64,000 bases of DNA from an uncultured Methanosarcinales archaeon (GCA_964344235.1 CAYFMJ010000001.1:283020-347019); one strand, 5' to 3'. Counted from the first letter of the stretch, positions 15,524-54,657 are shown. The notes: generated from the letters alone by a model not told the origin. Numbers and translations are program-made.

Positions 15524-15552
15524 GAGGAATATTTGGCGGATGATAAAGTCTA

Positions 15553-30939: not shown

Positions 30940-31021
30940 TTGAAAAGTTTAGTTTTTTTAAATCTTTAGAAACTCTTTTTGTGAAGACGAGTCTTTATTG
31001 GGCACCTTGTTTTAAGATCTT

Positions 31022-35122: not shown

Positions 35123-35260
35123 GAAAGGTAAGAATTATCCTTAAGACATTGCCCAACAATCTCTATGTTCTGTGACAAGTCTCTAAAAAATCCCGAGTGA
35201 TGTTACGTTGTTCTATAGTTCCACAACGCTTATTAGTTTTCCTTTATCAGGTGGCAGATT

Positions 35261-36367: not shown

Positions 36368-36395
36368 GCAAGTTGAGTATTCCTTGGGGTGTTCT

Positions 36396-37469: not shown

Positions 37470-38161
37470 TATCCTCTTTTCCGCATTAAGAATTCTGTTA
37501 TGTCAAAGTCGTGTTGTGTATCAATGTCGGTTGAATGCTCAACCGGCATAATATAAGGGTACGTTTTATCCGGGTACTCTCCACTTTCATCAAAAAGAAC
37601 AGATGGTTTGAACACAAACATATTCCCATTGTGAAGGTACACTTTGTCGTTGTCTTGTCGGTTCCCGAAGACTCCCTTTCTGTTGCTCCTAGGTCTTATA
37701 GTTCCATCGTCTTGAATTATCTTAATTCTGTTAGGGTGGACATCAGTTTCACACACTCCTATGACAGCATTTGCATTGTTTTTGAGAAAAATCTCAATGG
37801 CATTGTCAATATCCTGGGCTGTCCGCAAGGGTGAAGTTGGCTGTAAAATAACAACAATGTCTGGGTTGTACCCTGTCTCTTTCTGTAATCGGTCAATTGT
37901 GTAACGGTAGGCATCTGTTGCATCTGCATCATCTGTTGCTAATTCAGCTGGCCGCATAAATGGAATTTCGATGTCATAATGAGAACAAACTTGAGAGATC
38001 TCATTACTGTCAGTTGATAAAACCAGTTTGTTGATAAACTTTGATTTATTCGCTGCTTCAATAGAATAGGCAACCAGCGGTTTGCCATTTAGGGGCTTAA
38101 TGTTCTTTCCAGGAAGGCCTTTTGATCCTCCGCGAGCTGGAATAATTGCTAAAATATTCAT
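37469..38161 (-). CDS. neuA: N-acylneuraminate (CMP-nonulosonate) cytidylyltransferase, NeuA/KdsB family
   Basis: 230 aa. NILAIIPARGGSKGLPGKNIKPLNGKPL is the NeuA-type N-terminal signature. Confidence 0.85.
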   Translation of the reverse strand: MNILAIIPARGGSKGLPGKNIKPLNGKPLVAYSIEAANKSKFINKLVLSTDSNEISQVCSHYDIEIPFMRPAELATDDADATDAYRYTIDRLQKETGYNPDIVVILQPTSPLRTAQDIDNAIEIFLKNNANAVIGVCETDVHPNRIKIIQDDGTIRPRSNRKGVFGNRQDNDKVYLHNGNMFVFKPSVLFDESGEYPDKTYPYIMPVEHSTDIDTQHDFDITEFLMRKRG

Positions 38162-38258
38162 TCTGTTATCACTATTTATGTTTATTATAAAGCTTTTGGA
38201 AGATTAATTCTTTCTATATTACAACTCCATAATTCTTATAAATTAATCCTTAACCACA

Positions 38259-40439
38259 ATGATTAAAAAGATGGATAAACCAGCAATCATAGGTGGAAGA
38301 AAAGAGTTTGAAGAGTTTTTACCGATAGTAAGACCTTCTTTACCAACACTCTCTCAGATAAGCGTTCAAGTAGAAGAAGTTCTGGCGAGCGGCATGGTGA
38401 CGAATTTTTCGAAGTATACTCAACAGCTGGAACGTGAGTGTGGAAATTATCTAAACGTTAATTTTAGTCTTTCTCAACCAAACGCCACCACTGGATTACT
38501 GTTACTCTGTAAAGTGTTAGGTCTTACGGGAGAAGTTATTGTACCAAGTTTTACTTTCTCAGCGACTGTTCATGCACTGATTTGGAATGGCCTTACACCA
38601 GTTTTTGTTGATATTGACCCTGAAACGTTTAACATTGATCCAAAACTCGTGGAAGAAAAGATAACAGACAAGACCTCTGCCATTTTAGGAGTACACATTT
38701 TTGGTAATCCCTGTGACGTTAAGGAATTAGAAGAAATAGCGAGGAAACATGATTTAAAATTACTCTTCGATGCTGCTCATGCCTTTGGTTCGGAGTATCA
38801 AGGAAAGAAAATCGGAGGCTGTGGTGATGCAGAAGTTTTTAGTATGAGCGGAACTAAATTATTAGTGACTGGAGAGGGAGGTTTAATTACCACTACAGAT
38901 AAAGATTTGTCTGACAAGCTTAGGTTAGCAAGGAACTATGGGGATCCGGGAAATTATAATTGTGTTTTTGTTGGTTTTAATGGAAAAATGTCTGAGTTTT
39001 CAGCGATTATTGGCTTGCAGTCTCTGAAAGATATTTCTGGTCAAGTTAGGAATAGAAATATTATTAGAAATATTTTCGAACAAGAGTTACGAAGTGTTCC
39101 GGGAATTAGTTTTCAGAAGATAAGAGAAGGAAATATCACATCAGTGAAAGACTTTTCAATTATAGTTGATAAGAATGAATTTGGCATCAGTAGAGATCAA
39201 TTGGCTAAGTGTTTAGCAGCGGAGAACATTCATTCCAAAAAATATTTTTATCCTCCAATTCATTTTATGGATGCTTATAGAGAGTTTCATGAACAGTATT
39301 ATGGGAAACTACCACACACGGAAAAAGTCTCCTGGAACATTCTTTGTTTGCCGATCCATAGTACTATGTCGGAAGAGCAGGTAAAGAAGATATGCAATGC
39401 AATTAGGAGAATTCAGCATTTTCATCAAGAAATTGTTCAGGAAGCGGAAGATATTAGTTCAGTGTTGATAACAGGGGGCGCAGGGTATGTGGGAGTTGTC
39501 TTAGCAAGGCAGTTGTTAGAGCAAGGGTATAAAGTTAAAATTCTGGACCAGCTTATTTTTGGTAAAGAGCCTTTACAAGAGATTGAAGGACATCCAAACT
39601 TTAGCTTGGAAGTTGGTGTGGTTGAGGATAAATATGTGGTAGAAAAGAGTTTAGAGGGGATTGATGCAGTTATTCATTTGTCTGGTTTATCCAATGATCC
39701 TTCTTGTGAGTTAAACTCTGATTTGACGAAGAAATCAAATATAGATGCAACGAAAGTTCTTTTACAGTTTGCAAAAGCAAAAGGCGTAAAGAGATTTATC
39801 AATGCTTCTTCATGTAGTGTGTATGGTTTTACAAATGGTGTTTTGGTGGATGAACAAAGTCCGCCAAACCCTCTGACTGCTTATGCAAAATCGAAAGTAA
39901 AAAGTGAGGAGTTAGTTCTCGCTGAGTCAGAGGAAGATTTTGTGACAGTTTGTTTACGAAAATCAACGATTTATGGCCCTTCACCAAGAATGAGGTTTGA
40001 TCTTGTTATTAACACAATGACGGGAATGGGAATGAGTGAGGGCAAGATTGTTATCAATGGTGGTGAACAATGGCGCCCTTTCTTGCATGTTGAAGATGCA
40101 GCGAGTGCGTATCTGTTTATGTTACAAGCACCTAAAGAACAAATCAATGGGCAAGTGTTCAACGTAGGGAGTAACTACCAAAACATTAAAATTATAGATT
40201 TGGCGCATAGAATTGCTGCTGTTCTTCCTGGCGTAAAGGTTGAGCAGAGTCACTCTCCCGATAAAAGGAGTTATTTAGTTAGTTTTGATAAAATCAGTGC
40301 ACTTGGCTGGAAAGCTACATTTGATATCGAAGATGGAGTTCATGGTGTGAAAAAACTATTTGATGAAGGAAAAGTGAAGAATTTTCGCGATTTAAATTAT
40401 TTTAACATAAAGAGAATGATTTCCTATTTGAATGTTTAG
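38259..40439 (+). CDS. bifunctional fusion: N-terminal DegT-family aminotransferase + C-terminal NAD-dependent sugar-nucleotide dehydratase/epimerase (PseC/LegC-PseB/LegB-like)
   Basis: 726 aa. Residues ~1-380 carry the DegT blocks (VIVPSFTFSATVHAL, FSMSGTKLLVTGEGG). Residues ~395-726 carry VLITGGAGYVGVVLARQL (GxxGxxG) and YAKSKVKSE (YxxxK). Confidence 0.8.
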   Translation: MIKKMDKPAIIGGRKEFEEFLPIVRPSLPTLSQISVQVEEVLASGMVTNFSKYTQQLERECGNYLNVNFSLSQPNATTGLLLLCKVLGLTGEVIVPSFTFSATVHALIWNGLTPVFVDIDPETFNIDPKLVEEKITDKTSAILGVHIFGNPCDVKELEEIARKHDLKLLFDAAHAFGSEYQGKKIGGCGDAEVFSMSGTKLLVTGEGGLITTTDKDLSDKLRLARNYGDPGNYNCVFVGFNGKMSEFSAIIGLQSLKDISGQVRNRNIIRNIFEQELRSVPGISFQKIREGNITSVKDFSIIVDKNEFGISRDQLAKCLAAENIHSKKYFYPPIHFMDAYREFHEQYYGKLPHTEKVSWNILCLPIHSTMSEEQVKKICNAIRRIQHFHQEIVQEAEDISSVLITGGAGYVGVVLARQLLEQGYKVKILDQLIFGKEPLQEIEGHPNFSLEVGVVEDKYVVEKSLEGIDAVIHLSGLSNDPSCELNSDLTKKSNIDATKVLLQFAKAKGVKRFINASSCSVYGFTNGVLVDEQSPPNPLTAYAKSKVKSEELVLAESEEDFVTVCLRKSTIYGPSPRMRFDLVINTMTGMGMSEGKIVINGGEQWRPFLHVEDAASAYLFMLQAPKEQINGQVFNVGSNYQNIKIIDLAHRIAAVLPGVKVEQSHSPDKRSYLVSFDKISALGWKATFDIEDGVHGVKKLFDEGKVKNFRDLNYFNIKRMISYLNV

Positions 40440-41204: not shown

Positions 41205-42131
41205 ATGACAAAAACAATGAGAGACCAACTTCGTGCTGATGGTGAATTGGCGTTGGCAGGCCTTGTTCATCCAGAGATTATTCGTGGTGACCCTGCGTCT
41301 TGTACAGCAGAATTTAGCAAATTAATTGTTAATCTTTGCCTCCGTGTGGAAGATGATGATTATGTACGACGTATTACAGAAGACGATGTTGATCGAGTGA
41401 TGCTTCATGCAGATTCCCAGATTGGAAGACCAGAAGCCCACCGTTCTCACATTATCACAACAGGGTATTTGTTCCAAAGTCTCACAGCAGCTCTTCTTGA
41501 TACACATCCAGACTTAGATTTACCCCATCCGGATATTGCGCGTGCTATGGGTTGGCTACACGATCTTAATATGATGTTTAGTAGTTATCAACGAGGAGGT
41601 CAATTGTCGAAGGAATTAGATTTGTTTTTCTTAGGTGCTATGAATGGCTGGACACGGATAGCAGATCATATGGCGATGCATAGTGCTTATTTTGAGATTG
41701 GACAGCTTCTTACTGGGGAGTATCAATTTCCAGAAAAAAATGAAGCGTATGAAGGTATGCGGGAAGTTCTAAGGGGAGGGGGCCCATTATCACTTACTGC
41801 TATCACAGAGCGGTTTAGAGGATATCATCGAGGTACTGATAACATGCCGCTACTCGCCTTAACAGTGGTTGATTATATGGAACGTGGTTTAAGAACCTTT
41901 GATCCTACGAAGATAGAAGCGGACTTTGCTGCACGATCGGAGGATGTTCTTTGGCGCTACCATGGGAAACATGTAGAAGCAGAAATGGCGCCACCGCCTC
42001 TTGGCGTTGCGTTAATGTCGGGGGGATTAACGAGAATAAAAGGGTACAAAGACATAGTTAGAAAACTTCTTTCTGATGATATTGAAGCAATTGATAGGTT
42101 ACGAGAAACAACTCATCTGTTTAAGAAATGA
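41205..42131 (+). CDS. hypothetical protein, possibly HD-domain-like
   Basis: 308 aa. His/Asp residues (HRSH, WLHDL, DHMAMH) are spaced roughly like an HD metal-binding scaffold. It is the first gene of the phosphonate-like operon. Low certainty. Confidence 0.35.
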   Translation: MTKTMRDQLRADGELALAGLVHPEIIRGDPASCTAEFSKLIVNLCLRVEDDDYVRRITEDDVDRVMLHADSQIGRPEAHRSHIITTGYLFQSLTAALLDTHPDLDLPHPDIARAMGWLHDLNMMFSSYQRGGQLSKELDLFFLGAMNGWTRIADHMAMHSAYFEIGQLLTGEYQFPEKNEAYEGMREVLRGGGPLSLTAITERFRGYHRGTDNMPLLALTVVDYMERGLRTFDPTKIEADFAARSEDVLWRYHGKHVEAEMAPPPLGVALMSGGLTRIKGYKDIVRKLLSDDIEAIDRLRETTHLFKK

Positions 42132-42236
42132 TCTTCTGTTCAATAGAATTCCTGAATTTTTGTTACTTTTAAACAATAATCCATAAACTTAATAAAGAAA
42201 TTTGGTGCTTTTGATTGAGTCAAGGTGGAATGATAT

Positions 42237-43538
42237 ATGAAAAAAGTATATGTCGCAATGAGTGCAGACTTCTTACACGAAGGTCATATGAACATCCTAG
42301 ACGAAGCTCGGAAATTAGGAGAAGTAACAATAGGATTATTGACAGATGAGGCTGTAGCTACATATAAAAGAATGCCCCTTTTGAGTTATGAACAACGGAA
42401 GAGAATTTTTCGAAATATTGTTGGCGTTTGTGATGTTATACCACAGCATACTTTAGATTATGAAGAAAATATTCGTCAGTTGAAGCCAGACTTTGTTGTT
42501 CATAGTGATGATTGGAAAACGGGAATACAGAAGCCGATCCGGGAAAAGGTAGTTGCCACTTTACAAGAATGGGGAGGAATACTGATTGAACCAAGATATA
42601 CTGAAGGGATTTCCTCTTCGAAAATGGTTGGTCAAATTCGGGAGAGGGGCACTACTCCTGATGTACGAAGAAATATGCTGCGTCGATTGTTAGCAGCAAA
42701 ACCATTAGTAAGAGTTCTAGAAGCTCATAATGGTCTCACTGGGTTGATTGTTGAAAAAACAAAAATACAGAATCACTTAGGACATATTAAAGATTTTGAC
42801 GGAATGTGGTTAAGCAGTTTGACGCATTCTACCTCTAAGGGAAAACCAGATATTCAATACGTTGATATTACATCCACTGGTCAGACCATTAGTGAAATTT
42901 TTGAAGTTTCTACCAAACCACTAATTGTTGATGCGGATAATGGTGGGCTTATCGAACATTTTCGTTTTACTGTGAGAACGCTGGAAAGGCTTGGTGTATC
43001 TGCAGTTATTATTGAAGATAAAGTGGGAGCAAAACGGAACTCGTTATTTGGAACTGATGTTAAGCAGACACAAGATAGTATTAAAGGCTTTTCAGAAAAG
43101 ATTTCGGAGGGTAAGAAATCTCTAGTTTCTGATGATTTTATGATTATTGCTAGGATTGAAAGTTTCATTTTGAAGAAGGGTCTGGAGGACGCTCTAACCC
43201 GGGCAAGAGCGTACATAGAAGCAGGAGCAGATGCTATTATGATTCATAGTAAAGAGAATTCACCGTCGGAGATTCTTTCTTTCTGTGAAGAGTATAAAAG
43301 GTTTAGCACGAGAGTTCCATTGGTTGCTGTCCCATCTTCGTATAGTGAGATTACTGAGGAGCAATTAATAGAAGCAGGGGTGAATGTTGTGATCTATGCA
43401 AATCACTTACTAAGAAGTGCGTATCCAGCAATGGTTAGGGCGGCGGAGTCTATATTACAACATGGGCGCTGTCATGAAGCGAGCAAGAACTGTATGGAAA
43501 TTAAAGAAATTCTCAAATTGATACCTAATGGAGAGTAG
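42237..43538 (+). CDS. ppm: bifunctional cytidylyltransferase / phosphoenolpyruvate phosphomutase (Fom1-like CyTase-PEPM fusion)
   Basis: 433 aa. The N-terminal ~130 aa are a cytidylyltransferase-like HxGH domain (YVAMSADFLHEGHMNIL). The C-terminal ICL/PEPM domain has EAHNGLTG and the PEP-mutase-specific signature EDKVGAKRNS (EDKX5NS), plus a VDADNGG metal site. Confidence 0.85.
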   Translation: MKKVYVAMSADFLHEGHMNILDEARKLGEVTIGLLTDEAVATYKRMPLLSYEQRKRIFRNIVGVCDVIPQHTLDYEENIRQLKPDFVVHSDDWKTGIQKPIREKVVATLQEWGGILIEPRYTEGISSSKMVGQIRERGTTPDVRRNMLRRLLAAKPLVRVLEAHNGLTGLIVEKTKIQNHLGHIKDFDGMWLSSLTHSTSKGKPDIQYVDITSTGQTISEIFEVSTKPLIVDADNGGLIEHFRFTVRTLERLGVSAVIIEDKVGAKRNSLFGTDVKQTQDSIKGFSEKISEGKKSLVSDDFMIIARIESFILKKGLEDALTRARAYIEAGADAIMIHSKENSPSEILSFCEEYKRFSTRVPLVAVPSSYSEITEEQLIEAGVNVVIYANHLLRSAYPAMVRAAESILQHGRCHEASKNCMEIKEILKLIPNGE

Positions 43539-43635
43539 AGTACCAATATAGTGGACTAATTTAGAGTTCAAAGGTGGCCTTTGAAACAATCACTTTTACA
43601 TATGATTTATAAAGAGGAATACGTGTCGAACCATT

Positions 43636-44775
43636 ATGCAACAAGAATATTTTGGTATGGGAAGTATTACGTTTTTGAAGGAAATATTAGAGCGAGAAAA
43701 CCCGAGTAAAATATTTTTAGTGCGGGGGAAACAGGCGTATGTTTCTTCAGGTGTGCAAAAAAAATTGGAACCCTTTCTTTTTGATTATGAGGTGGTTCAC
43801 TTCTCAGATTTCTCTGTGAACCCAAGAATTGAAGATGTGGAGAAAGGAATAGAACTTTATAAAAAAGAAAAGTGCGATTTTGTCATTGCTGTTGGCGGAG
43901 GAAGTGTTATTGATATGGCGAAGTCAATAAACGTACTTTCTGTGCAACCAGAGGAACCTCCAAAATATATCCTTAAGGAGTTGCCAATAGAGATGAAAGG
44001 AAACCCATTAATTGCTATTCCTACAACATCAGGGACTGGAACTGAAGCAACTCAGTTTGCTGTTGTATATATTGGCAAAAAGAAATATTCACTCGCCCAT
44101 AAAGAAATCCTTCTACCAAGTTATGTGATTCTGGATCCATCATTAACCTCTTCTCTGCCGGCTAAGGTGACAGCTTCAACAGCCATGGATGCATTGGCTC
44201 AAGCTATTGAAGCACACTGGTCAGTTCATTCTACCAGAGAATCAAAGATATTTTCGCGAGGCGCTATTTCACTTATTTTAGATAATGTTCACGCTGCTGT
44301 TAATAGTCCAACAGAAGAAGCGAGAATAGCGATGATGAAAGGTTCAAATTTAGCGGGAAAAGCCATAAATATCGCCAAAACAACAGCATGCCATGCTGTT
44401 TCTTACCCAATCACCTCTTACTTTAATATTCCACATGGCCATGCAGTTGCGTTGACTTTGGGCGAGATGTTTGTATTCAATGCACAAATAGTAGAAGACC
44501 AATGCTCTGACAAAAGGGGAGTGGGTTATGTTAAAGATACAATGTATGAACTGATTCAACTTTTCAAAGTGGAAACTGCTCAAGAAGTTCGTATTAGAAT
44601 AGAACAATTAATGGATTCTATACAACTGGAACGGAATTTGTCAAAGTTACATATTACAACAGAAGATCACTTTAATCTCATCATTCAAAATGGATTTAAT
44701 CCGGAAAGGGTTAAAAATAATCCTCGGCTCTTAACAGAACAGAATTTAAGAAGCATGTTAACACGCATAAAGTAA
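43636..44775 (+). CDS. group III iron-containing alcohol dehydrogenase (phosphonoacetaldehyde reductase candidate, FomC/PhpC/Pdh-like)
   Basis: 379 aa. AVGGGSVIDMAK is the NAD-binding GGGS motif. The His-rich metal site is HGHAVALT. Confidence 0.75.
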   Translation: MQQEYFGMGSITFLKEILERENPSKIFLVRGKQAYVSSGVQKKLEPFLFDYEVVHFSDFSVNPRIEDVEKGIELYKKEKCDFVIAVGGGSVIDMAKSINVLSVQPEEPPKYILKELPIEMKGNPLIAIPTTSGTGTEATQFAVVYIGKKKYSLAHKEILLPSYVILDPSLTSSLPAKVTASTAMDALAQAIEAHWSVHSTRESKIFSRGAISLILDNVHAAVNSPTEEARIAMMKGSNLAGKAINIAKTTACHAVSYPITSYFNIPHGHAVALTLGEMFVFNAQIVEDQCSDKRGVGYVKDTMYELIQLFKVETAQEVRIRIEQLMDSIQLERNLSKLHITTEDHFNLIIQNGFNPERVKNNPRLLTEQNLRSMLTRIK

Positions 44776-44836
44776 TATCGAGTTGTCCATAAGATTATTC
44801 CATAAGTCTTAAGAAGGAGATTTTGACCATGCGAGT

Positions 44837-46324
44837 ATGGTTAATTATGGTTCAAAGCTTCTAAAAGGGGCCGGTATTATTTTCTTTATGAGTTTACTGA
44901 GTGCTGGTTTGGGGTATGGAATACGAATTATTCTTGCTAAGAATTTAAGTACTGCAGATTTTGGCCTTTTTTTTGCTGTTTATAACATAGTGTTGATGCT
45001 TGGTTGGATGAAAGGGTTTAGTTTTACGTCTGTTGTTCAAAAGTTTATACCTGGGTTTAAAGCTAAAGGAGATTATACGAAAATAAAATCAATGTTTATA
45101 TTTGTCCTTATCTTTACTTCATTAACGAGCTTACTGCTTGTCATCTTAATTTACTTATTCCCGGAACACCTTATTAACAGCTACTTTAAGAGTAATGTAG
45201 CAAAGTCATTGCTTTGGATAATTACTCTTTTTTATATTATTGATGACTTCTCAAAGCTTGTTGCGGGATACTTCCTTTCTGTACATTTGCCGTTTCTTTA
45301 CTCCCTGCGGGATTTATTAGTCCGATTATCCCTTTTTCTGCTTTTGTTTGTTGTTACTATTAATACTTTTTCTGTGGCCTGGCTCTATGTTGTAGCAGCA
45401 GCACTCGCACTTGTTGTTAATCTGTTACTTTTTATACGATATTTTCCTTTTCAGTATAAAACTTCAATCACAAAAGATCTAGTGCGGAAATTATTTAGCT
45501 TTAGCACTCCTCTTATTATACGGGATTTTTTTGGCGTCTTTTTGAGTAGGGTGGACAACCTTTTTCTTGTCTATTTCAGGCCTTTGACAGAAGTTGCTAT
45601 CTATAACACTATTTTGCCAACGGCAGAGCTCTTATTGTTTATTTCTCGACCTTTTGCAAAGGTCTTGTTTCCCCTGTCCTCAGAATTGTGGTTTATGCAA
45701 GATAAAAGAAGGCTGAGGAGTCTTCTAGGTATAACCCACAAATATTTGCTGTTACTTTTAATTCCACTCGCACTCTTTGTTGGTTATCTATCAACTTTTA
45801 TTTTAAGTCAATTTTTTGGCTCAGTGTATGTAGAAGGATCTTTTGGATTAAGGATATTAATTGTTGGAATCCTATTTTCTAGCTTGAATCTTGTGGGTTA
45901 TGCTGTTCTAAAAGGCATCGGAAAGACCAAAGAAGTGGCAGTAATTCATATATTTATAAATAGTCTTAATGTTATTCTTAATATAATCTTAATACCCTTA
46001 TTTGGATCATTGAATCAAGGTTATTTTGGGGCTATAATTGCAACAACATGCAGTTTCTTTGTTGCCTTTTTACTTTTGACATACTTCTTACATAAATTTT
46101 TGCACTATAGACTTTCTCTAGCTATCCTTTTATTTATCGTTACAAGTGGTTTTGCTTCTTTGCTTATTATGCATGTCATTGTAACACCGATTTCATCTTT
46201 GTATGTGCAATTAGCTGTTTTTATTGTTGGTTTCTCCCTGCTGTATCTCGTATTTATCTTTGTGTTGAAAATCACTTCAAAGCAAGAGATTGTTACTTTA
46301 TTGAAGATGTTGAGGTCATCTTAG
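44837..46324 (+). CDS. Wzx-like flippase (MOP superfamily polysaccharide biosynthesis protein), second copy
   Basis: 495 aa with ~14 TM helices. The gene is AT-rich. Confidence 0.65.
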   Translation: MVNYGSKLLKGAGIIFFMSLLSAGLGYGIRIILAKNLSTADFGLFFAVYNIVLMLGWMKGFSFTSVVQKFIPGFKAKGDYTKIKSMFIFVLIFTSLTSLLLVILIYLFPEHLINSYFKSNVAKSLLWIITLFYIIDDFSKLVAGYFLSVHLPFLYSLRDLLVRLSLFLLLFVVTINTFSVAWLYVVAAALALVVNLLLFIRYFPFQYKTSITKDLVRKLFSFSTPLIIRDFFGVFLSRVDNLFLVYFRPLTEVAIYNTILPTAELLLFISRPFAKVLFPLSSELWFMQDKRRLRSLLGITHKYLLLLLIPLALFVGYLSTFILSQFFGSVYVEGSFGLRILIVGILFSSLNLVGYAVLKGIGKTKEVAVIHIFINSLNVILNIILIPLFGSLNQGYFGAIIATTCSFFVAFLLLTYFLHKFLHYRLSLAILLFIVTSGFASLLIMHVIVTPISSLYVQLAVFIVGFSLLYLVFIFVLKITSKQEIVTLLKMLRSS

Positions 46325-46364
46325 TTTCTTAATATTTATAAATAGCTGACATTTTTTTTGGAGG

Positions 46365-47780
46365 ATGAAAAAGAACACATTAAATGGTCGAAAGTTTGTT
46401 TTTTTCTCTGGGTCGTCGGGGCGTGACAAGATGATGATAAAAATAGCGAAACAGCTTGCTTCACGAAATGGTGTGAAAACTCACTTCCTGACGTTTACAC
46501 CTGGCCAAACAGTTGATTATTTTGTTTCAGAGGGAATTAAGAGCGATTGTGTTACATCTGTTCTTCACCTCCCTAATCCTGCTGTGAAGCCAGACATGGC
46601 TTTCTTGAAGTCTAAGGAGATAGAATATGGGGTTCAGTTCTTTGACATCTGGCAAATTGCTGCGGCTAGAAGCAAAAAACGCCATAACATAAAGTCCACT
46701 AAGGTGCTGGCCCAAATGGAATTCTTTGTTCGAGAGCTTGAACACTTTATTAAAAAGGTTAAGCCCGATTATCTTGTTGTTTCTGGGGTTTCATCGTATG
46801 TTACCCTCCTTGCATACAAAATTTTTATGAAGAAGGGACTTCCTGTATTAGAGATAACAAACCCACGTATTCCTAATCGGTTTGCAATTGATGATAAACT
46901 GAAATCCGAGTGGCCCTTGCTTGTGAAGAAATACGAAGAAATAAAAAACACCTCTTTGAAGCCGCGGCAGAGGAAAGAAGCGCTGGACTTCATGCAGTCT
47001 TTCTATGTGAAACCTTTAAAGTCAGATAACCAGACTACAGAGAACCAGGACTTCTCACAAAGATTTGCGAGATACTTTAGACACATAAAAACATTGTATT
47101 ATAGACGCCGCCTTCCAGCATTAAGGGTTTTTTGGACTCCTATTAAAGATTTTTTCTTAAAGAATTCTTCACGGTTTGAACTTCCAGTAGATGGAGAAAA
47201 ATTTGTCTTTCACCCTTTACAAATCCAACCAGAGGTTTCTACTCTCCTTAAGGGCAAGTGGTATGTTAATCAAGTAGCCTTGATTGAAAATATCGCCAAA
47301 AGCCTTCCTTGCGATTACAAGCTTTATGTTAAAGAACATGTTAAAAATTATTCCCAGCGCCCCCCAAACTTTCATCGTGATATTAAGCGATTCCCTAATG
47401 TTCGTTTGATTGCCCCTTCCGCTGACACTATTTGGTTAGCCAAAAAATGTTCGCTGGTTACGACGATTACTGGAACGATTGGTTGGGAAGCAATCTTGTT
47501 ACGCAAGCCGGTTTTAACGTTTGGACAGGTCTTTTATAACCAGTTTGAAGAAGTCGTGTCTGTTGTGGATATTAAACAGCTTCCCAACATTATAAAAAGC
47601 AAACTTGATACTGTTGTTGATCTTGAGAAAACACTGCAATTTGTTAGTGCAGTACAACAGTCAACGTTTCCGGGAATAAGAGCTCTTCCAACTGACTGTC
47701 GAGATCGCTCATTAAAAGATGAGAATATCTTAGCGCTCACTCAAGGGTTAGAACAATATATTTATGCAATGAACCTTTGA
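46365..47780 (+). CDS. capsule-polysaccharide-biosynthesis family protein (KpsS/KpsC-like, possible beta-Kdo/nonulosonate transferase)
   Basis: 471 aa, soluble. The C-terminal half (FVFHPLQIQPE ... TITGTIGWEAILLRKPVLTFGQ) resembles the Capsule_synth fold with its HP motif. Assigned by pattern memory only. Confidence 0.35.
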   Translation: MKKNTLNGRKFVFFSGSSGRDKMMIKIAKQLASRNGVKTHFLTFTPGQTVDYFVSEGIKSDCVTSVLHLPNPAVKPDMAFLKSKEIEYGVQFFDIWQIAAARSKKRHNIKSTKVLAQMEFFVRELEHFIKKVKPDYLVVSGVSSYVTLLAYKIFMKKGLPVLEITNPRIPNRFAIDDKLKSEWPLLVKKYEEIKNTSLKPRQRKEALDFMQSFYVKPLKSDNQTTENQDFSQRFARYFRHIKTLYYRRRLPALRVFWTPIKDFFLKNSSRFELPVDGEKFVFHPLQIQPEVSTLLKGKWYVNQVALIENIAKSLPCDYKLYVKEHVKNYSQRPPNFHRDIKRFPNVRLIAPSADTIWLAKKCSLVTTITGTIGWEAILLRKPVLTFGQVFYNQFEEVVSVVDIKQLPNIIKSKLDTVVDLEKTLQFVSAVQQSTFPGIRALPTDCRDRSLKDENILALTQGLEQYIYAMNL

Positions 47781-47818
47781 TAGTGATTTGTATCGCTCTG
47801 TAGTTCTGTTGGTGATTT

Positions 47819-49525
47819 CTAGTCTTTGCCAAGTGTTTGGCGTAAATAACTTTTTGTTTCAATCAACAGCTTCTTTGGGTCTTTTAAGTAATGGGTCTTT
47901 TTAGCGTAGATTAAAGAGAGACCTTTGAGAAACCAGCCAGGAGGTTTTTTTATGAACGTTAGATTATAGTCTAAATAGGTAGTTGTTGTTGATGTAAGCT
48001 TACTTGCGATCTTCATGAGATCTCTCCTCCCTGCACCAAAAGGGTTATCTAAGGGAATCATTGTGAGATCATACGGTTTATTGCAAAGTTGAGAACAGTT
48101 TTTCATGAAATCATCAAAATGGATGGTGGTGAAGTGGATGTCCACTTGGTCCGTAGATCGGCCAACATCTTGATGTTCAAACGCCCATTTTTTGGAGAAG
48201 GAACTCTCTCGAACGTTAACGTTATAGTGCGTTATCTTTCCTTTTGGCTCAAACCCCCCGTATGTGGTTTTATAGTTGTTCATTATCTTCTTATTAATCA
48301 CCACATCTAACTCATAGTGTGAAAAAGTAGCATCGAGTGCTTTGATTACCATGGAAATAAAAGTGCTATTCGCAGAGCCTAATAACAATATTCGCTTAAT
48401 ATTTTGAATTTTCTTTATTGAGAAATGCTTCGCAATTTCTCGCTGAAACTTATTTGTTAGGTATGTTGTGTGGTATGTAACGAGGTCCTTTTCCTGCTGC
48501 TGCAATTCTTTTCGGAAAAAATCCAGTTCTACGGCATGCTCTGGCGAGGCAATGAGGTTGGTTTGCTCGTCGGGATCACGAGAAAGATCATAGAATTCTT
48601 CACTCTGCTCGTCAAATCGAAAAATATATTTATACTTCTCTGTCTGCAAGGCTGTAGCCCGTTCTTTCTGGAAAATATATCGTATGTCGCTGCGGAATAG
48701 TTTTTTTGTATAAGGAGCATCATGTTCAATAAGTGGCAGTAAACTCATCCCTCGAAATCCAAATTCACTGTGAGGAATATTTACAATATCTAGAATAGTT
48801 GGTGTTATGTCAAGGGGACTCACTAGGGTTTTTATTCTCTTTCTCGGACAAGAAGGATATTTCAAAAAAAGGTGTTGTAAAATATTTGAATTGGTAAGAA
48901 TAAGGTCATGGCGCTTCATGATTTTTTTTCGCTCATTGTCATTCCAACCATGGTCTGGGCAGAATAAAAAAAGACAATCATCATACAACCCTTCTTTCTT
49001 TAACCTCTCAATCAGAAGTCGTACGTATTTTGCAGTATTCTCTTGGTTGTTGTAGTTTAGAAGGAGAAAGAACGGTTCTTGTAGCTTTCTTTCTAACAGG
49101 TGATCCAACAGTTTGTTGATGTCCTGGCTTTTCCAATTATCATCATTTCTGATTCCATCGGGCAGCTCCTTTTGGTCTAGTGAAAGAACCGCTTGTTTTA
49201 ATCTCTTCCGAACTTCAGCGGAGTGTGTTGTTGCATATACTGTGTAACCATTTTTTTTAAGAATTCTACTAATGGAAGGAAAGTAATCATGGTCAAAGCT
49301 AAAATCCGCGTTAGTTCTACTGAGATGGATACCAGGCTGGCTAGTCATTAACGAGCTTTGTGACATCAAAGTGCTTGCAGTTGTGTCTACGACGTTTTCA
49401 AAGTACACTCCCTCTGAAGAGATTTCATCAATAATTTTATATTTCCCAAAACGATCCTTTCCAGGATAGTTGCGTATTGCTTCTCCAAGAATCCAGATTA
49501 CATTTAGCTTTTTTTTAGAAGACAT
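47819..49525 (-). CDS. sulfatase-fold (alkaline phosphatase superfamily) phospho-group transferase-like protein (EptA/LtaS catalytic-domain-like, no TM anchor) with extra C-terminal domain
   Basis: 568 aa. Present: NVIWILGEAIRN (cf. EptA VIVGESAR), the Thr/Ser nucleophile region DTTASTLMSQSSLMTS, and the metal site FLFCPDHGW. The last ~220 aa are unassigned. Confidence 0.55.
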   Translation of the reverse strand: MSSKKKLNVIWILGEAIRNYPGKDRFGKYKIIDEISSEGVYFENVVDTTASTLMSQSSLMTSQPGIHLSRTNADFSFDHDYFPSISRILKKNGYTVYATTHSAEVRKRLKQAVLSLDQKELPDGIRNDDNWKSQDINKLLDHLLERKLQEPFFLLLNYNNQENTAKYVRLLIERLKKEGLYDDCLFLFCPDHGWNDNERKKIMKRHDLILTNSNILQHLFLKYPSCPRKRIKTLVSPLDITPTILDIVNIPHSEFGFRGMSLLPLIEHDAPYTKKLFRSDIRYIFQKERATALQTEKYKYIFRFDEQSEEFYDLSRDPDEQTNLIASPEHAVELDFFRKELQQQEKDLVTYHTTYLTNKFQREIAKHFSIKKIQNIKRILLLGSANSTFISMVIKALDATFSHYELDVVINKKIMNNYKTTYGGFEPKGKITHYNVNVRESSFSKKWAFEHQDVGRSTDQVDIHFTTIHFDDFMKNCSQLCNKPYDLTMIPLDNPFGAGRRDLMKIASKLTSTTTTYLDYNLTFIKKPPGWFLKGLSLIYAKKTHYLKDPKKLLIETKSYLRQTLGKD

Positions 49526-49593
49526 GTTTACCTTATCTTTTCATTTTTCTGTTTTGCTTGCGTTTATAAGTTTTATTAAGTTACATACCAGTG

Positions 49594-51075
49594 TTACTGT
49601 TGCTTTTTCAGCGACTCACTTGTACTATACTCTTTTCCTCCATCTTCTTTCACACCATACTTTTTCAGAAGGTAATTATAGAGGAAATAAATAGTGGCGT
49701 CTTGGTCCTCGATCGGAAAGCTTGAAATGACCATTCCCTGTAATCGATGATTACCACATCGTTCTGCATGCCTCTGTGTTGGGGTGAAGATTTCCTTTGT
49801 TTTTAGTAGTGAAGAAGGCCAAAAGCGAAAATCGGTGTCATAGAATAGTAAGTCCGGTGCTTGGTCTAAGTGTTTACCTCTGTATACTTCCTCTTTTTTC
49901 TTTACTTCATGTTTGAAGCACCATCCCTGTTCGCGCTGTAACACTTCATATACTTTGTTCCTTACTCTCTCAAAATCTTCCTTAGCAACACTTCCTGCTT
50001 TGAAATCACTTGTATTGATATAAACGCCATTTTCCATTGCAAAAGCAACAGTATTCTCCCAGTCAATGAGTTTTTTGTTAACAGCATCGTTCCATTGCAA
50101 CGCACCCACTTCGGAGGGAATCAGTCTTGATACATTAGTGCCTTTCAGCAACGCATATGCTAACTTTTTGATTTTGAATTTCATGAGTAAGGTATCAATT
50201 TTGTTGGAATCTAACTTTAGTGTGCTTAAGACAGAAGAGATAAACGTGCTATTTTTTTTCAACTTGAGAAAGTCATTTCTCACTAACCATTCGTTAAGGT
50301 GGAATTTCCCATGCAACGCACCACCGCCGTGGTCGCTTAAGATGATGATTTCGCCATCATGGCCTGTGACGAGTTTTCCAACTTCATGATCGACGAGTTC
50401 ATAATAGTCATAAAATGCTTTTTCATATTCTTCATTCTCTTCATAGATTGGGCTATCGTGGTAGACATACCTGGCCATAAGGTGTTGTACGGCGTCAGTG
50501 CCGTTTTCAACAACAACAACAACGTCTGGTTTTAGTTCTTTGAGTAACTTTTTCACAACTTTAAAACGAACTTCTGTTGCGCTTCTGATTTGCTGTATTA
50601 ACTCATTCATGCTATTCCAGTTGTAGGTAAGTTGGTACTTAGGTAATTCCTCTTTAATCATCTCACGAATCTCTTTTGGGTAGATGAAGGAATCACTGTC
50701 CATGGAAGGTGTGTATACACCCGTTAGAATAAAGCCGTTAAAAGGGCGCGCAGGATATGTTCCTGGAACGTTTATAATTCCGCAACGGGCATCTACTTTC
50801 TCCCAAAAAGGAACAAAATTGTAATGTTTAACAGGGACTTTCGCGTAATCTTTTACTGTATGACAACCAAATAAACCAATCTCTCCTGGATTACTGCCGC
50901 TGACAATGCAAGACCACGCAGGAACAGAATTCGGTGGAATGACGCTTTTTACTTCTTTCAAAGAACCTGCTTTTATTATTTTTTCAATGTTAGGAATTTT
51001 CTTTTTTTTAATAAGTGCTTCAATTAAATTTTTACTTACTCCATCTAATCCAATGACAATTGTCTGTTTATTCAT
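49594..51075 (-). CDS. type I phosphodiesterase/nucleotide pyrophosphatase-family (NPP-like alkaline phosphatase superfamily) enzyme
   Basis: 493 aa. IVIGLDGVS is the N-terminal metal-site Asp. PPNSVPAWSCIVSGSNPGEIG is the NPP nucleophile region. The second metal site is ILSDHGG. Confidence 0.55.
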   Translation of the reverse strand: MNKQTIVIGLDGVSKNLIEALIKKKKIPNIEKIIKAGSLKEVKSVIPPNSVPAWSCIVSGSNPGEIGLFGCHTVKDYAKVPVKHYNFVPFWEKVDARCGIINVPGTYPARPFNGFILTGVYTPSMDSDSFIYPKEIREMIKEELPKYQLTYNWNSMNELIQQIRSATEVRFKVVKKLLKELKPDVVVVVENGTDAVQHLMARYVYHDSPIYEENEEYEKAFYDYYELVDHEVGKLVTGHDGEIIILSDHGGGALHGKFHLNEWLVRNDFLKLKKNSTFISSVLSTLKLDSNKIDTLLMKFKIKKLAYALLKGTNVSRLIPSEVGALQWNDAVNKKLIDWENTVAFAMENGVYINTSDFKAGSVAKEDFERVRNKVYEVLQREQGWCFKHEVKKKEEVYRGKHLDQAPDLLFYDTDFRFWPSSLLKTKEIFTPTQRHAERCGNHRLQGMVISSFPIEDQDATIYFLYNYLLKKYGVKEDGGKEYSTSESLKKQQ

Positions 51076-51188
51076 CTCTGCCGGGCTTTGAATTTTGTTT
51101 ATAAAGATTATGAATAAAGAATGAAAAAAAGAAAGATTTATATACGAAATGTCTCAGAAATAATAAATTAGTAAAACGAGAGGTATCA

Positions 51189-52898
51189 ATGGTTGAAAGT
51201 CAAAATGAGGAAATGTTAGGGACAGTGAAAACTTCTGGTTCGACGCCGAGCGGTGATAGTAGCCCTACAGTTCCTACAGTAAATGTTGCAGTGAACGCCC
51301 CTACAATTGATGGTGGCGTTCAAACACCCATTGCTCCTGCGGCGTCAAACGGAACTTCATTTGCAAATAATAGTGCTTCTGCAACAACTGAGAATGAAAA
51401 ATTTAGAGTGCTCTTAATCCACGCAAATTCTTCTATGGATACCTTAATTCCACCCAACTTGGCAACTCTATCTGCTTATTTGAAACAAGCGGGGAATGAA
51501 GTGAAACTATTTGATACAACGTTTTACAATACCCGTGGATTTACCGGTGATGATTCTCGAGTTAGAACCCTGCAGGTCAAAGAAACTAAGTTTGCTGATT
51601 TAGGAATTCACTTTGAGACGACGGATATGGTGGAAGATTTCATAAAAATAGTTGAGGAATACCAACCTAATCTTGTTGGATTATCTGCCGTTGAGTTGAC
51701 ATTCCAAATGGGGATGAATTTGATCAACGCTATGAAAGAGATCAGACCAGATATCCCGGTTATTGTAGGAGGCTCACATGCTATTACATCGCCTGAGGCA
51801 GTTGCTGCGGAGAAAAATGTTGATCTTATTTCAATCGGAGAAGCTGAAAAATCCTTTGTAGAGTTATGCACTAAATTACAGAACGGCGAAGATTATACTC
51901 AAATTCTGAACATGTGGGTTAAAAAGGATGGCCAAATTTACAAAAATAAGTTGGGAAATCTGATTGCAATGGATGATCTTCCTCGCCAAGATTGGGAAAT
52001 TTTTGATAAACGAAGAATCTACAAACCAATGTCGGGGACTATTGGCAGAACTGGTTGTTTTGAGCTTACGCGCGGCTGTGTTTTCTCTTGCACTTTTTGT
52101 ATCAATGAATTCTTAAATAAGACGCACAAACATCGAAGTTATCGAGAGAAAAGTATCCCTAAATTTATCGAGGAAGTGCAATATTTCAAAGAGAAATATG
52201 GGATTGAATATGTTTATATTCTCGCAGAGATGTTTCTTCCAACTTCTAAAGAGAGAGTACGAGAGTTTTCCCGCCTGTGGAAAGAGAAGGTTGGTCTTCC
52301 ATTTTGGTGTCAGGTAAGGGTTGAGGGCGTTGATGAGGAAAATGCTAGACTGCTTGAAGAAGCGGGTTGTGTATCAATCTCGGCTGGTATTGAGAGCGGT
52401 AATGAAGAATTTAGAAGAAATGTTATTCATAGAATGATGAGTAATGAAAAAATAATTGAAGCGTTTAGAATTCTCAAGAGCACAAAAATGCAAATTTCGG
52501 GCAATAGCATCATTGGGTTCCCTGGAGAAACTCGCGAACAAATATTTGATACTATTGAGCTTAATAGAAAATTAGATTTGGATAATATTATGATTCATGT
52601 CTTTAATCCTTATCGAGGTACAACTTTGTATGATGTTAGCGTTGAAAGAGGGTACATTACTCCCAACCACATGGCGGGTGATTACAGGGCAGATTTTACA
52701 TTAAACATGCCACACATTACAAAGGAAGAAATCCTTGGACTACAAAGAACTTTTAACATGTACGTCAAATTTCCAAGAGAAATGTGGCCCGAAATAAAAA
52801 TTGCGGAAAGGATGGATGAAGAAGGGAACAAGAAATTTGCAGAACTGAGTAAAAAGTTTAAAGAAGAATTCTTTGCAAAACCATTAATGATGCATTAA
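51189..52898 (+). CDS. B12-binding radical SAM enzyme, class B (Fom3/PhpK/GenK-like methyltransferase candidate)
   Basis: 569 aa. The N-terminal ~60 aa are low-complexity Ser/Thr/Pro-rich. The B12-binding domain is FRVLLIHAN...LSAYLKQAGNEVKLFD. The radical SAM motif is TRGCVFSCTFCINEF. Paralogous to 7367..9079. Confidence 0.8.
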   Translation: MVESQNEEMLGTVKTSGSTPSGDSSPTVPTVNVAVNAPTIDGGVQTPIAPAASNGTSFANNSASATTENEKFRVLLIHANSSMDTLIPPNLATLSAYLKQAGNEVKLFDTTFYNTRGFTGDDSRVRTLQVKETKFADLGIHFETTDMVEDFIKIVEEYQPNLVGLSAVELTFQMGMNLINAMKEIRPDIPVIVGGSHAITSPEAVAAEKNVDLISIGEAEKSFVELCTKLQNGEDYTQILNMWVKKDGQIYKNKLGNLIAMDDLPRQDWEIFDKRRIYKPMSGTIGRTGCFELTRGCVFSCTFCINEFLNKTHKHRSYREKSIPKFIEEVQYFKEKYGIEYVYILAEMFLPTSKERVREFSRLWKEKVGLPFWCQVRVEGVDEENARLLEEAGCVSISAGIESGNEEFRRNVIHRMMSNEKIIEAFRILKSTKMQISGNSIIGFPGETREQIFDTIELNRKLDLDNIMIHVFNPYRGTTLYDVSVERGYITPNHMAGDYRADFTLNMPHITKEEILGLQRTFNMYVKFPREMWPEIKIAERMDEEGNKKFAELSKKFKEEFFAKPLMMH

Positions 52899-53548
52899 TA
52901 GGCTGGGCTGAAATCAAGTTCGTCATCCTGGATATAGGCAATCTTTTTTTGCAGTGCAATATATGCTTTCTGCAGCTCCCGACCTAGATAGGCGGCGTGG
53001 TCATATCGAGAAAGAAGGTTTTCTTTAATGGCAGTTTGGTAAATCTCAAGTGGTTTCGTGCCAATGATTTTCACACTGACTTTGTTGACTGTAGGACAAA
53101 ACCCCACATGAATCTCCTTCTTCTGATGATCTACTTTGATTAAAAAATAGCCTTTTTGATCCATCATAAATTCTTTGCGATCATCATATTGAGCGTGGAT
53201 TACTCTTAATGCGGTGGTATCAACCTCTGTTTTCACAACTTTTGTATTATCCTCTTTGTTGATTACCTGGATGGCATTTACGGGACAAGCCTCAGCAGCG
53301 GCAATAAGCTTTTGGGCCTCTTGGGGTGTACAGACAAGACTTCTAACACTATTCTGGTTTTCCTGATGACCTTTGACAAGTTCTGCCGTGTTTTCTTTTA
53401 TGAAAAAATTATTTGGGTCAATCCGTTGACAAACCCCGTTAGCAACACATTTTTTCTGATCTAATAGTACTTGAAAGGATTTAGCTTTTTCTTCTGAGGT
53501 TTGATGTTTATTCTGTTCTGTTGATTGTTGTTCTGTCATGTAAAACAC
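52895..53548 (-). CDS. ferredoxin-domain protein (N-terminal single-cluster Fd paralogous to 9174..9470) fused to an uncharacterised C-terminal domain
   Basis: 217 aa. KKCVANGVCQRIDPNNFF ... LVCTPQE ... AEACPVNAIQV has the same Cys spacing as the 9174 ferredoxin. The C-terminal ~110 aa are unassigned. Its stop overlaps the rSAM stop in a convergent arrangement. Confidence 0.55.
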   Translation of the reverse strand: MFYMTEQQSTEQNKHQTSEEKAKSFQVLLDQKKCVANGVCQRIDPNNFFIKENTAELVKGHQENQNSVRSLVCTPQEAQKLIAAAEACPVNAIQVINKEDNTKVVKTEVDTTALRVIHAQYDDRKEFMMDQKGYFLIKVDHQKKEIHVGFCPTVNKVSVKIIGTKPLEIYQTAIKENLLSRYDHAAYLGRELQKAYIALQKKIAYIQDDELDFSPAY

Positions 53549-53666
53549 GGAAGCTACTTTCTTTATAAATATTCTGAATATCTTGGTTGGAGGCGTGTTC
53601 CGACAGTGGCCTTAATATCTTCCTTCACTAATCGAAGCCCTACAATAGATCATGAGAACTTAGTTA

Positions 53667-53702
53667 CGCCGGGTCATGTAGTACTCTGTACTACAGTGGC
53701 AC
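53667..53702. repeat. perfect palindrome TGTAGTAC-TCT-GTACTACA followed by tandem 11-mer ACTACARTGGC x2, within a 344-bp non-coding gap
   Basis: Read directly. Positions 53667-53685 form an 8-bp stem with a 3-nt loop. Positions 53680-53701 are ACTACAGTGGC ACTACAATGGC. A related CGACAGTGGCC lies at 53613-53623. Confidence 0.6.
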
Positions 53703-53892
53703 TACAATGGCACATAACAGAAATGGGATATTTTTGGAATGTTCCGATAACCATTGATTTTTGTTAGAGATGATTATTTAGCACTCAGCCAGGTGTTCCA
53801 CAATATTTATAAGACCAATTATTTTTTTGAGCGTAAAATGAGCTTGGTGCTCTTTTGGTTGGAGAAAGCTATGTGTTGGTGGTTAATGTATT

Positions 53893-54657
53893 ATGAAAGC
53901 TCTTATCTTAAATTCAGGAGTGGGCAATAGAATTGCTGATGTGGTTAGTGGTAAGCCTAAGTGTTTGATTGAAATTGGCCCCGGAACAACGATCCTGAGT
54001 CAGCAGATCCAGCATCTTCTTGATGCAAACATTAATGAATGTATCGTGACTACAGGTCCTTTTGTTGAAGATATCAAGAATCATATCCGACAGAAATTCC
54101 CTCAGATGAATGTCCAATATGTACATAACCCCCTTTACAGAACGACTAATTATATTTATTCGTTGTACTTAGCTCGAAAGTTTATTGATGACGATATTCT
54201 ATTGCTCCACGGGGATTTAGTATTCGAACCAGAGGTTCTTACACGATTACTTCAGGATTCTGCTCCTAATGCCATCCCTGTTGACACATCTGTGCCGCCG
54301 CCGGAGAAAGATTTCAAAGGCCGAATTGAGCAAGGGTGCATCAAAGAGGTAGGAGTTAATACATCTGGGTCGGATTGCTATTTTGTTGCACCTCTCTATA
54401 AGTTTTCTCAACAATCTTTCCTTGATTGGCTGGTACAGATCGAGCAATTCATTTTTGAGGGCGAGCATACCGTTCATGCCGAGAATGCGCTGAACCAAAT
54501 TATGGATGCACTCCAGGTTAAGGCTGTGCCTATTAATGGAATATTTTGTTCTGAGATTGATACAAAAGAAGATATGGATTCTGTGTGCACGTATTGGCGG
54601 AGGAGGAGCAAGAGAAACGATTATTCTCTTTTGGGTGAGAGCTTAACAAGCACCTAA
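53893..54657 (+). CDS. sugar-phosphate/phospho-alcohol nucleotidyltransferase (LicC/PntC-like cytidylyltransferase candidate)
   Basis: 254 aa. The N-terminal KALILNSGVGNRIADVVSGKPKCL is the GxGxR NTP-transferase signature. Confidence 0.65.
   Translation: MKALILNSGVGNRIADVVSGKPKCLIEIGPGTTILSQQIQHLLDANINECIVTTGPFVEDIKNHIRQKFPQMNVQYVHNPLYRTTNYIYSLYLARKFIDDDILLLHGDLVFEPEVLTRLLQDSAPNAIPVDTSVPPPEKDFKGRIEQGCIKEVGVNTSGSDCYFVAPLYKFSQQSFLDWLVQIEQFIFEGEHTVHAENALNQIMDALQVKAVPINGIFCSEIDTKEDMDSVCTYWRRRSKRNDYSLLGESLTST

Follow-up and report, generated by a model that had tools for sequence, protein, structure and literature searches.

A predicted phosphonyl-tailoring gene cluster lacking a linked phosphonopyruvate decarboxylase in a surface-glycan island of an uncultured Methanosarcinales archaeon

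We analyzed a 64,000-nucleotide (nt) stretch of DNA from an uncultured Methanosarcinales archaeon (GCA_964344235.1 CAYFMJ010000001.1:283020-347019), hereafter the window. Between positions 41205 and 54657 it carries ten open reading frames (ORFs) with the hallmarks of a phosphonate biosynthesis cluster (Table 1), among them a cytidylyltransferase (CyTase) fused to a phosphoenolpyruvate (PEP) mutase (Ppm), an iron-dependent alcohol dehydrogenase (Fe-ADH), and a B12-binding radical S-adenosylmethionine (rSAM) enzyme. These three ORFs exist exactly where an initial annotation, made from the sequence alone, had placed them. Its overall reading, a fosfomycin-like early pathway serving a glycan, stood with regard to the Fom1 architecture, the dehydrogenase, the glycan island, and the absence of a phosphonopyruvate decarboxylase (Ppd), but not in its suggestions of a PhpK-type radical-SAM enzyme and of an HD-like protein standing in for Ppd.

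Table 1. Predicted genes and domains of the cluster, with positions counted from the first nucleotide of the window
Positions	Strand	Predicted feature	Basis
41205..42131	+	HD-superfamily accessory protein, 308 aa (predicted)	conserved H82, H119-D120, H159, D223
42237..43538	+	Fom1-type bifunctional enzyme, 433 aa	Pfam, NCBIfam, PDB sequence match, motifs
~42237-42640	+	N-terminal HxGH cytidylyltransferase domain of the fusion	
~42678-43538	+	C-terminal PEP mutase domain of the fusion	
43636..44775	+	group-III Fe-dependent alcohol dehydrogenase, predicted phosphonoacetaldehyde reductase (PhpC/FomC type)	Pfam, orthology
44837..46324	+	polysaccharide (Wzx/MATE-like) flippase, ~12 hydrophobic segments	Pfam Polysacc_synt, hydropathy
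46365..47780	+	KpsC/KpsS-like (Capsule_synth) protein, candidate transferase for CMP-linked donor	PF05159 E 2e-10
47819..49525	-	alkaline-phosphatase-superfamily "sulfatase," candidate phospho(no)transferase/esterase	Pfam Sulfatase, SGSH_C
49594..51075	-	Type I phosphodiesterase/NPP-family protein (alkaline-phosphatase superfamily)	Pfam Phosphodiest E 6.2e-27
51189..52898	+	class-B (B12-binding) radical-SAM enzyme, phosphonate-cluster-associated clade	Pfam, motif, homologue context
52895..53548	-	4Fe-4S ferredoxin domain plus PterinBD-DUF4346 protein	Pfam
53893..54657	+	PntC/LicC-type (MobA-like) nucleotidyltransferase, predicted second cytidylyl-activating enzyme	NTP_transf_3, PF12804 E 8.8e-10

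Pfam recovered both domains of the fusion, i.e., CTP_transf_like at residues 11 to 130 (E 1.9e-13) and PEP_mutase (PF13714) at residues 148 to 407 (E 2.5e-54). The mutase domain scored 391.1 bits with the NCBIfam PEP_mutase equivalog TIGR02320, above its cut-off of 319.55, and the fusion remained far below the cut-offs of the phosphonopyruvate hydrolase, methylisocitrate lyase, and CPEP mutase models. The N-terminal domain is 57% identical over 133 residues to the Fom1 CyTase of crystal structure 5x3d (E 2.9e-50) and carries the nucleotidyltransferase motifs HEGH (residues 14 to 17) and RYTEGISS (residues 120 to 127). Over its full length, the mutase domain aligns with the Mytilus Ppm 1m1b (E 1.4e-39), keeping the Asp of "vrDsn," the DxD motif, EDK...NS, the Arg of "ARIES," and the His of "IHSK." DADNG occupies residues 232 to 236 of the fusion, and EDKVGAKRNS, at residues 260 to 269 (nt 43014 to 43043), fits the EDKX5NS signature that the initial annotation had named as diagnostic of the mutase; its call of an HxGH cytidylyltransferase-PEP mutase fusion holds for both domains and, in the mutase, down to the catalytic residues. 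The protein departs from its family at 6 of 150 columns with a conservation of 95% or more (family median 2, maximum 10) and, by this comparison, looks intact, inside the family range of deviation.

Scanning one genome per prokaryotic species yielded 173 relatives of the fusion, and the locus counts given below use the best 80, which are 59 to 72% identical to it over their full length (L- and P-numbers denote the related loci and homologous proteins compared here). The metagenome-assembled genomes (MAGs) and isolates that encode these relatives are labeled Clostridium, Aminicenantes, Patescibacteria, Spirochaetota, Woese- and Nanoarchaeota, Lokiarchaeum, and Methanosarcinales, among others. 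This agrees with the survey of Rice et al. 2019 (PMC6697681), in which PF01467-Ppm fusions made up 23.6% of motif-positive Ppm enzymes, with Fom1 cited as the exemplar. Therefore, the CyTase-Ppm architecture is already known and widespread, and a Fom1-type fusion accompanied by an Fe-ADH is ordinary for the field.

The dehydrogenase matches the Pfam families Fe-ADH (E 1.7e-40) and ADH_Fe_C (E 8.2e-32). It scored under all NCBIfam cut-offs, with 168 versus 423.7 bits for TIGR03405 Phn_Fe-ADH (PsrA) and slightly higher scores for the ErcA and lactaldehyde reductase models, and the NCBIfam output held no FomC- or PhpC-specific model. The FomC/PhpC type proposed by the initial annotation is supported instead by apparent orthology to the ADHs encoded after Ppd in related Ppm-Ppd-ADH loci, to which the protein is 48 to 55% identical and of whose columns conserved at 90% or more it retains 34 of 35. 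Ppd lies directly downstream of Ppm in 75 of the 80 relatives, a few bases to a few hundred from the ppm stop codon, and an Fe-ADH homologue, usually next after Ppd, occurs in 52 of the 80. These frequencies make the Ppm-Ppd-ADH cassette, and hence the 2-hydroxyethylphosphonate (HEP) branch, the norm for the clade of the window's Ppm. In the window itself, ppm and adh are separated by a 97-nt spacer that is AT-rich and promoter-like; with this composition and no tblastn signal, a Ppd remnant between the two genes was ruled out. The Ppm-to-ADH junction recurs in an ENA assembly made independently from this sample, and the lack of Ppd is hence no assembly artifact. Conserved-column comparison and a frameshift check detected no signs of decay in Ppm or ADH. 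Because they deviate little at conserved columns, both proteins look functional and under selection, and all ten cluster ORFs appear intact.

The radical-SAM protein combines an N-terminal B12-binding domain (PF02310, E 5.4e-16) with a radical-SAM core (PF04055, E 1.7e-21; CVFSCTFC, i.e., CxxxCxxC, at 297-304), the class-B architecture of Fom3. The initial annotation had offered either Fom3 or PhpK as its type. The class-B assignment and the link to phosphonate genes stand, but membership in the PhpK family is excluded by scores below every NCBIfam cut-off, among them 100.8 versus 600 bits for the PhpK-family model TIGR04479 and 88.1 versus 575 bits for NF038361, with the HpnJ (140) and BchE (113.6) models scoring above PhpK. 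No match named Fom3 appeared among the best 120 homologues, and the PDB search returned no Fom3 sequence match. Proteins 70 to 84% identical derive from Nano- and Woesearchaeota-labeled MAGs and metagenome contigs. Homologues of at least 53% identity adjoin a cytidylyltransferase in L007, L068, L093, L095, L096, L101, L102, L104, L106, and L107, and in nine of these ten loci the readable flanks include the CyTase-Ppm fusion. Moreover, P0091 and P0093 are full Ppd proteins (TPP_enzyme_N and C) fused to a radical-SAM part 53% identical to that of the window, and such Ppd::rSAM fusions (as at L093:9001-11625) are flanked by CyTase-Ppm and Fe-ADH. Genomic context thus shows a strong association of this clade with phosphonate biosynthesis, although homologues also occur in unrelated contexts in L094 (46% identity) and L108 (59%). 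The conserved part of the enzyme begins at about position 51390; positions 51189 to 51389 specify a 70-residue low-complexity extension, rich in S, T, P, A, and N, which homologues lack and which resembles a disordered linker. That it might be the remnant of a fused Ppd was ruled out, as nothing in it resembles Ppd and no more than 113 nt of intergenic sequence lie upstream.

The ferredoxin/DUF4346 protein, whose NCBIfam matches are to MtrA and to the C-terminal region of a DHPS-like protein, adjoins the radical-SAM gene in L007, L099, L104, and L107 as well, and is probably its redox partner. A second class-B radical-SAM gene (7367-9079, minus strand), with 23% identity to the first and a score of 131 bits against the PhpK model, lies about 33 kb from the phosphonate genes beside a methyltransferase and an STT3/AglB gene; the ENA annotation places a small Fer4 ORF next to it. 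Some cassettes of relatives also contain a conserved pair composed of a second B12-rSAM and an HIT-domain protein (L101:2755-4881, L104:6126-8282).

The first ORF of the cluster, called HD-like by the initial annotation, specifies a protein with no Pfam, NCBIfam, or PDB sequence match, whose family is small, with 36 clusters in a set of 1.84 billion representative proteins. Among 30 of its members, H82, D120, H159, and D223 are invariant and H119 is nearly so. This H...HD...H...D motif and a predicted all-helical HD-type fold, together with a weak match of the family profile to the H...HD motif of SAMHD1 (E 0.028), suggest that the protein is a divergent member of the HD superfamily, in line with the earlier label. 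Judging from the fold, candidate chemistries would be those of a phosphohydrolase acting on a CMP-phosphonate or PPi or of an HD-type oxygenase. The closest homologues with readable context (P0003, P0004, and P0005; 41 to 44% identity) are encoded between CyTase-Ppm and a full-length Ppd, an arrangement found in L081-L086, L090, and L091, and L093 and L095 encode in this place 260-residue proteins that are probably distant relatives. In L001, a copy with 29% identity stands before ppm, and another family member (34% identity) lies in an unrelated context.

The remaining cluster genes point to activation, transfer, and export. The last ORF has as its best PDB match the 2-aminoethylphosphonate (AEP) cytidylyltransferase PntC Tde1415 (6pd1, E 8.8e-13), followed by LicC (1jyk), and shares 41 to 46% identity with the genes placed after ADH in Ppm-Ppd-ADH-NTP transferase cassettes. 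Flippase homologues flank the cassette in L001, L006, L007, L096, and L104. At the nucleophile position, the sulfatase-like protein aligns Thr/Ser and not Cys, which would fit phosphoryl-transfer enzymes rather than formylglycine sulfatases; its homologues are conserved in cassettes L007, L068, L093, L095, L096, and L104-L107, and those of the NPP-family protein in L007, L071, L093, L095, L096, and L105. The set of sulfatase-like protein, CyTase-Ppm, rSAM, and Fe-ADH is repeated, with Ppd, in L093, L095, L096, and L104, the first three of which also encode an NPP-like protein; the order in L093/L095 is sulfatase-like, 76-residue ORF, CyTase-Ppm, 260-residue protein, Ppd(::)rSAM, Fe-ADH, and NPP-like. 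An ORF of 76 to 81 residues ("...SSYVTYILRQVLS...LGYL"), possibly a ribbon-helix-helix (RHH) regulator, is conserved beside the sulfatase-like gene (L007:4018-4263, L068:1623-1853, L093:6543-6773, L096:8562-8801). The closest complete cassette, L096 (1-5392), carries upstream LicD, an NTP transferase, a RuBisCO-large-subunit-like protein, and an APH-family kinase. Neither MpnS/HEPD nor the stand-alone 180-residue CyTase nor the 76-residue RHH-like ORF of relatives was found in the window. KpsC-type enzymes use a CMP-sugar donor, and the KpsC-like protein of the window has a weak PDB match to KpsC (E 1.4e-4). Its membership in the phosphonate module is uncertain because it has no homologue in related loci. 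In the ENA assembly of this sample, the sequence stops inside this gene, at about 46627, where Logan contigs are only 3 to 6 kb long; strains that differ in the right half of the cluster may be the cause.

The window also holds many glycosyltransferases, sugar-modifying enzymes, an STT3/AglB homologue, and NeuB/PseF-type nonulosonate genes, so that the cluster sits in a surface-glycan island, as the initial annotation had proposed for an archaeal setting. The STT3 homologue (PF02516, E 1.8e-17) appears to be of archaeal type, although its sole NCBIfam match, archaeo_STT3, stays below the cut-off (103 versus 450). The closest matches of the cluster genes are in MAGs labeled DPANN or Methanosarcinales, and no rRNA genes, tRNA genes, or Rfam matches were found in the window. 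Just upstream of the phosphonate genes, positions 34076-40439 contain NeuB- and PseF-type nonulosonic-acid genes and a DegT aminotransferase-dehydratase fusion, and NeuB and CMP-sugar synthetase homologues occur near CyTase-Ppm in L001, L015, and L074, which could mean that the phosphonate decorates a glycan containing nonulosonate. Elsewhere in the island, three FemAB/GNAT-like (Acetyltransf_6) genes (14468-16602, 60890-61942) lie by polysaccharide deacetylases and DegT aminotransferases; taken with the AMP-binding enzyme and phosphopantetheinyl transferase encoded at 29407-31405, these genes suggest sugars that bear aminoacyl or acyl groups. The glycan island is bordered by ATP-citrate lyase beta- and alpha-like genes (875-2104, minus strand, and L097:11227-13032).

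Taken together, these data lead us to favor, with a probability of roughly 0.6, the interpretation that positions 41205 to 54657 constitute an HEP-branch phosphonyl-tailoring cluster within a large surface-glycan island, with decarboxylation provided in trans. The C-terminal domain of the fusion, by its family membership and catalytic motifs, would convert PEP to phosphonopyruvate, which an enzyme encoded elsewhere, with an unlinked Ppd or, in a methanogen, ComDE as candidates, would turn into phosphonoacetaldehyde. The Fe-ADH, given orthology and synteny in relatives, is predicted to reduce the latter to HEP, and the N-terminal CyTase, in view of its 57% identity to the Fom1 domain, to activate it as CMP-HEP. 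The B12 radical-SAM enzyme and its ferredoxin/DUF4346 partner would then modify the CMP-phosphonate. Fom3-like C-methylation is our leading guess for this step and the most economical one because the enzyme is paired with a CyTase making Fom3's substrate. Finally, the alkaline-phosphatase-superfamily pair and/or the KpsC-like protein may transfer the phosphonyl group to a glycan or lipid-linked precursor for export by the adjacent flippase.

Several observations weigh against this interpretation. As the initial annotation had remarked, the window encodes no thiamine pyrophosphate (TPP)-dependent Ppd: a Pfam scan of all ORFs of at least 120 residues in the 64 kb recovered no TPP enzyme, and tblastn of the window with two bona fide Ppd queries gave no match. 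Nor does Ppd occur in the approximately 10 kb to the left of the window, and none of the best 120 Ppd homologues (at least 60% identity) falls on its 412,874-bp contig, a weak negative, obtained with the Ppd of the closest cassette as seed, that says nothing decisive about more divergent copies. The equilibrium of the mutase reaction lies far towards PEP unless phosphonopyruvate is drawn off. An aminotransferase replaces the ADH beside the radical-SAM clade in L007 (after Ppd), L102, and L107/L006 (directly after Ppm), and CMP-HEP therefore cannot be the sole substrate context of this clade. Likewise, tblastn with the relatives' copies found neither LicD nor a CDP-alcohol phosphotransferase in the window, which leaves the transfer step as an inference.

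Nevertheless, supply of the decarboxylase from elsewhere in the genome is favored since Ppm and ADH both look functional. The closest homologue of Ppd is the sulfopyruvate decarboxylase ComDE of methanogens, which could stand in for Ppd if the host is a methanogen. Furthermore, unlinked early genes do occur in the lineage: L001, a MAG labeled Methanosarcinales that encodes the closest Ppm relative (72% identity), has a methylphosphonate synthase (MpnS) homologue (6b9s, E 8e-167) yet neither Ppd nor ADH within 10 kb, and methylphosphonate synthase requires HEP. In L001 (16131-17510, with 8925-14007), this MpnS homologue and a PhnDCE phosphonate ABC transporter adjoin the HD-like-CyTase-Ppm genes, and a similar arrangement of PhnD plus cupin occurs in L009 (Woesearchaeota). 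L102 and L107 are further members without Ppd, and L101 has neither Ppm nor Ppd. The L101 locus retains rSAM, a second rSAM, an HIT-domain gene, and an NTP transferase; it encodes a 512-residue in-frame fusion of a Fom1-type cytidylyltransferase domain to an Fe-ADH (L101:5512-7050), as though an in-frame deletion had removed the mutase domain and Ppd.

The same absence of Ppd invites other explanations. The cluster could be an eroding or dependent remnant that lost Ppd and makes no C-P bonds de novo, its remaining enzymes decaying or using phosphonoacetaldehyde or HEP from a partner or the environment. The vacancy at a site where Ppd adjoins Ppm in 75 of 80 relatives would be expected in this case, L101 testifies that early genes can be lost from a cassette of the same radical-SAM clade, and many close relatives are labeled DPANN (Nanoarchaeota, Woesearchaeota), which are often host-dependent. 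However, Ppm and ADH show neither excess substitutions at conserved positions nor frameshifts, the ten ORFs are intact, and the window encodes no phosphonate importer, unlike L001 and L009 with PhnDCE. These features render a remnant unlikely in our estimation.

We find it decidedly improbable that the pathway diverges at phosphonopyruvate, with a cluster enzyme consuming this compound directly, e.g., the Fe-ADH forming phosphonolactate, by analogy to VlpB in valinophos biosynthesis or to the direct aminotransfer that is likely in L006, L102, and L107. The adh gene does follow ppm directly, behind its own AT-rich promoter-like region, some relatives without Ppd carry a class-V aminotransferase directly after ppm, and phosphonopyruvate is known to branch into direct reduction as well as direct transamination (PMC8942020). 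On the other hand, the ADH of the window is an unremarkable ortholog of ADHs acting after Ppd (48 to 55% identity, 34 of 35 columns), phosphonopyruvate reductases known so far are members of the 2-hydroxyacid dehydrogenase family and not Fe-ADHs (PMC8942020), and the Fom1-type CyTase is known for HEP. Hardly credible at all is a further idea, raised by the initial annotation, that the HD-like protein is a non-TPP substitute for Ppd. This family, for which no function is known, does lie immediately upstream of ppm in both the window and L001, neither of which has Ppd. Against such a role, the chemistry expected of an HD fold is that of a phosphohydrolase or an oxygenase, and the idea was rejected because close homologues sit between Ppm and Ppd, as distant ones likely do in L093 and L095. 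By this context, the protein is an accessory of phosphonate clusters, coexisting with Ppd rather than replacing it.

Comparison with known systems places the HEP-branch tailoring cluster that we favor close to several of them. The early fosfomycin pathway of Streptomyces (Fom1/Fom2/FomC/Fom3) shares the CyTase-Ppm architecture and the clustering with Fe-ADH and a B12 radical-SAM enzyme. Its Fom2 has an equivalent, Ppd, in the relatives of the window but not in the window, and its HppE/Fom4 epoxidase, FomD hydrolase, and FomA/B kinases have no counterparts in the cluster, whose setting amid glycosyltransferases, a flippase, and nonulosonate genes points to surface decoration rather than a secreted antibiotic. 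The Pnt clusters (Rice et al. 2019, PMC6697681) likewise combine a PF01467-fused Ppm with a nearby LicC/PntC-type transferase to supply a CMP-phosphonate donor for the cell surface. Whereas the characterized PntC systems involve AEP and LicD-type transferases, the window has the ADH (HEP) branch, no LicD homologue found, and extra B12-rSAM, ferredoxin/DUF4346, and HD-like genes. The methylphosphonate cluster of Nitrosopumilus maritimus (PMC9381506) also is an archaeal HEP-forming pathway amid sulfatase-family and glycan genes; it comprises Ppm, Ppd, Fe-ADH, and MpnS together with sulfatase-like and transferase genes, whereas the window has the radical-SAM enzyme instead and neither a MpnS/HEPD homologue nor Ppd. 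The glycoconjugate regions of Methanoperedens Borgs (bioRxiv 10.1101/2024.11.05.622173) also encode a fused Ppm and cytidylyltransferase among archaeal surface-decoration genes, but with the PEP mutase domain described as N-terminal, the opposite order to the window, in a preprint without pathway analysis. HEP-type phosphonate gene neighborhoods as such have already been inventoried (PMC8942020).

The window therefore represents a known kind of system, namely nucleotidyl-activated phosphonate tailoring on the HEP branch, and appears to be one of several members of its cassette family without Ppd. For the conserved variant with a dedicated B12-rSAM clade, fused to Ppd in two proteins, no description was found in the literature searched. 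It is conceivable, and we advance it only tentatively, that this clade, at times fused to Ppd and often accompanied by a ferredoxin/DUF4346 protein, marks an unrecognized and fairly widespread phosphonate branch, in which CMP-phosphonates would be C-methylated (e.g., to CMP-2-hydroxypropylphosphonate) and installed on surface glycans of archaea (DPANN/Methanosarcinales-type) and some bacteria. Fom1/2/C/3 would then be a specialized offshoot of surface tailoring, and the decarboxylase could be borrowed, e.g., ComDE.

Phosphonates account for a considerable part of the organic phosphorus in the sea, and methane arises from their catabolism. To our knowledge, the surface molecules carrying phosphonates and the steps after CMP activation remain largely unknown. 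The locus and its relatives provide candidates for these late steps, i.e., the B12-rSAM, its ferredoxin/DUF4346 partner, the two alkaline-phosphatase-family proteins, and the HD-like protein, in archaea unstudied for phosphonates. That Ppd has been lost repeatedly in a single cassette family prompts the question of what drives the thermodynamically unfavorable mutase reaction forward, and the Ppd::rSAM fusion offers a specific lead to the function of a large uncharacterized radical-SAM clade.

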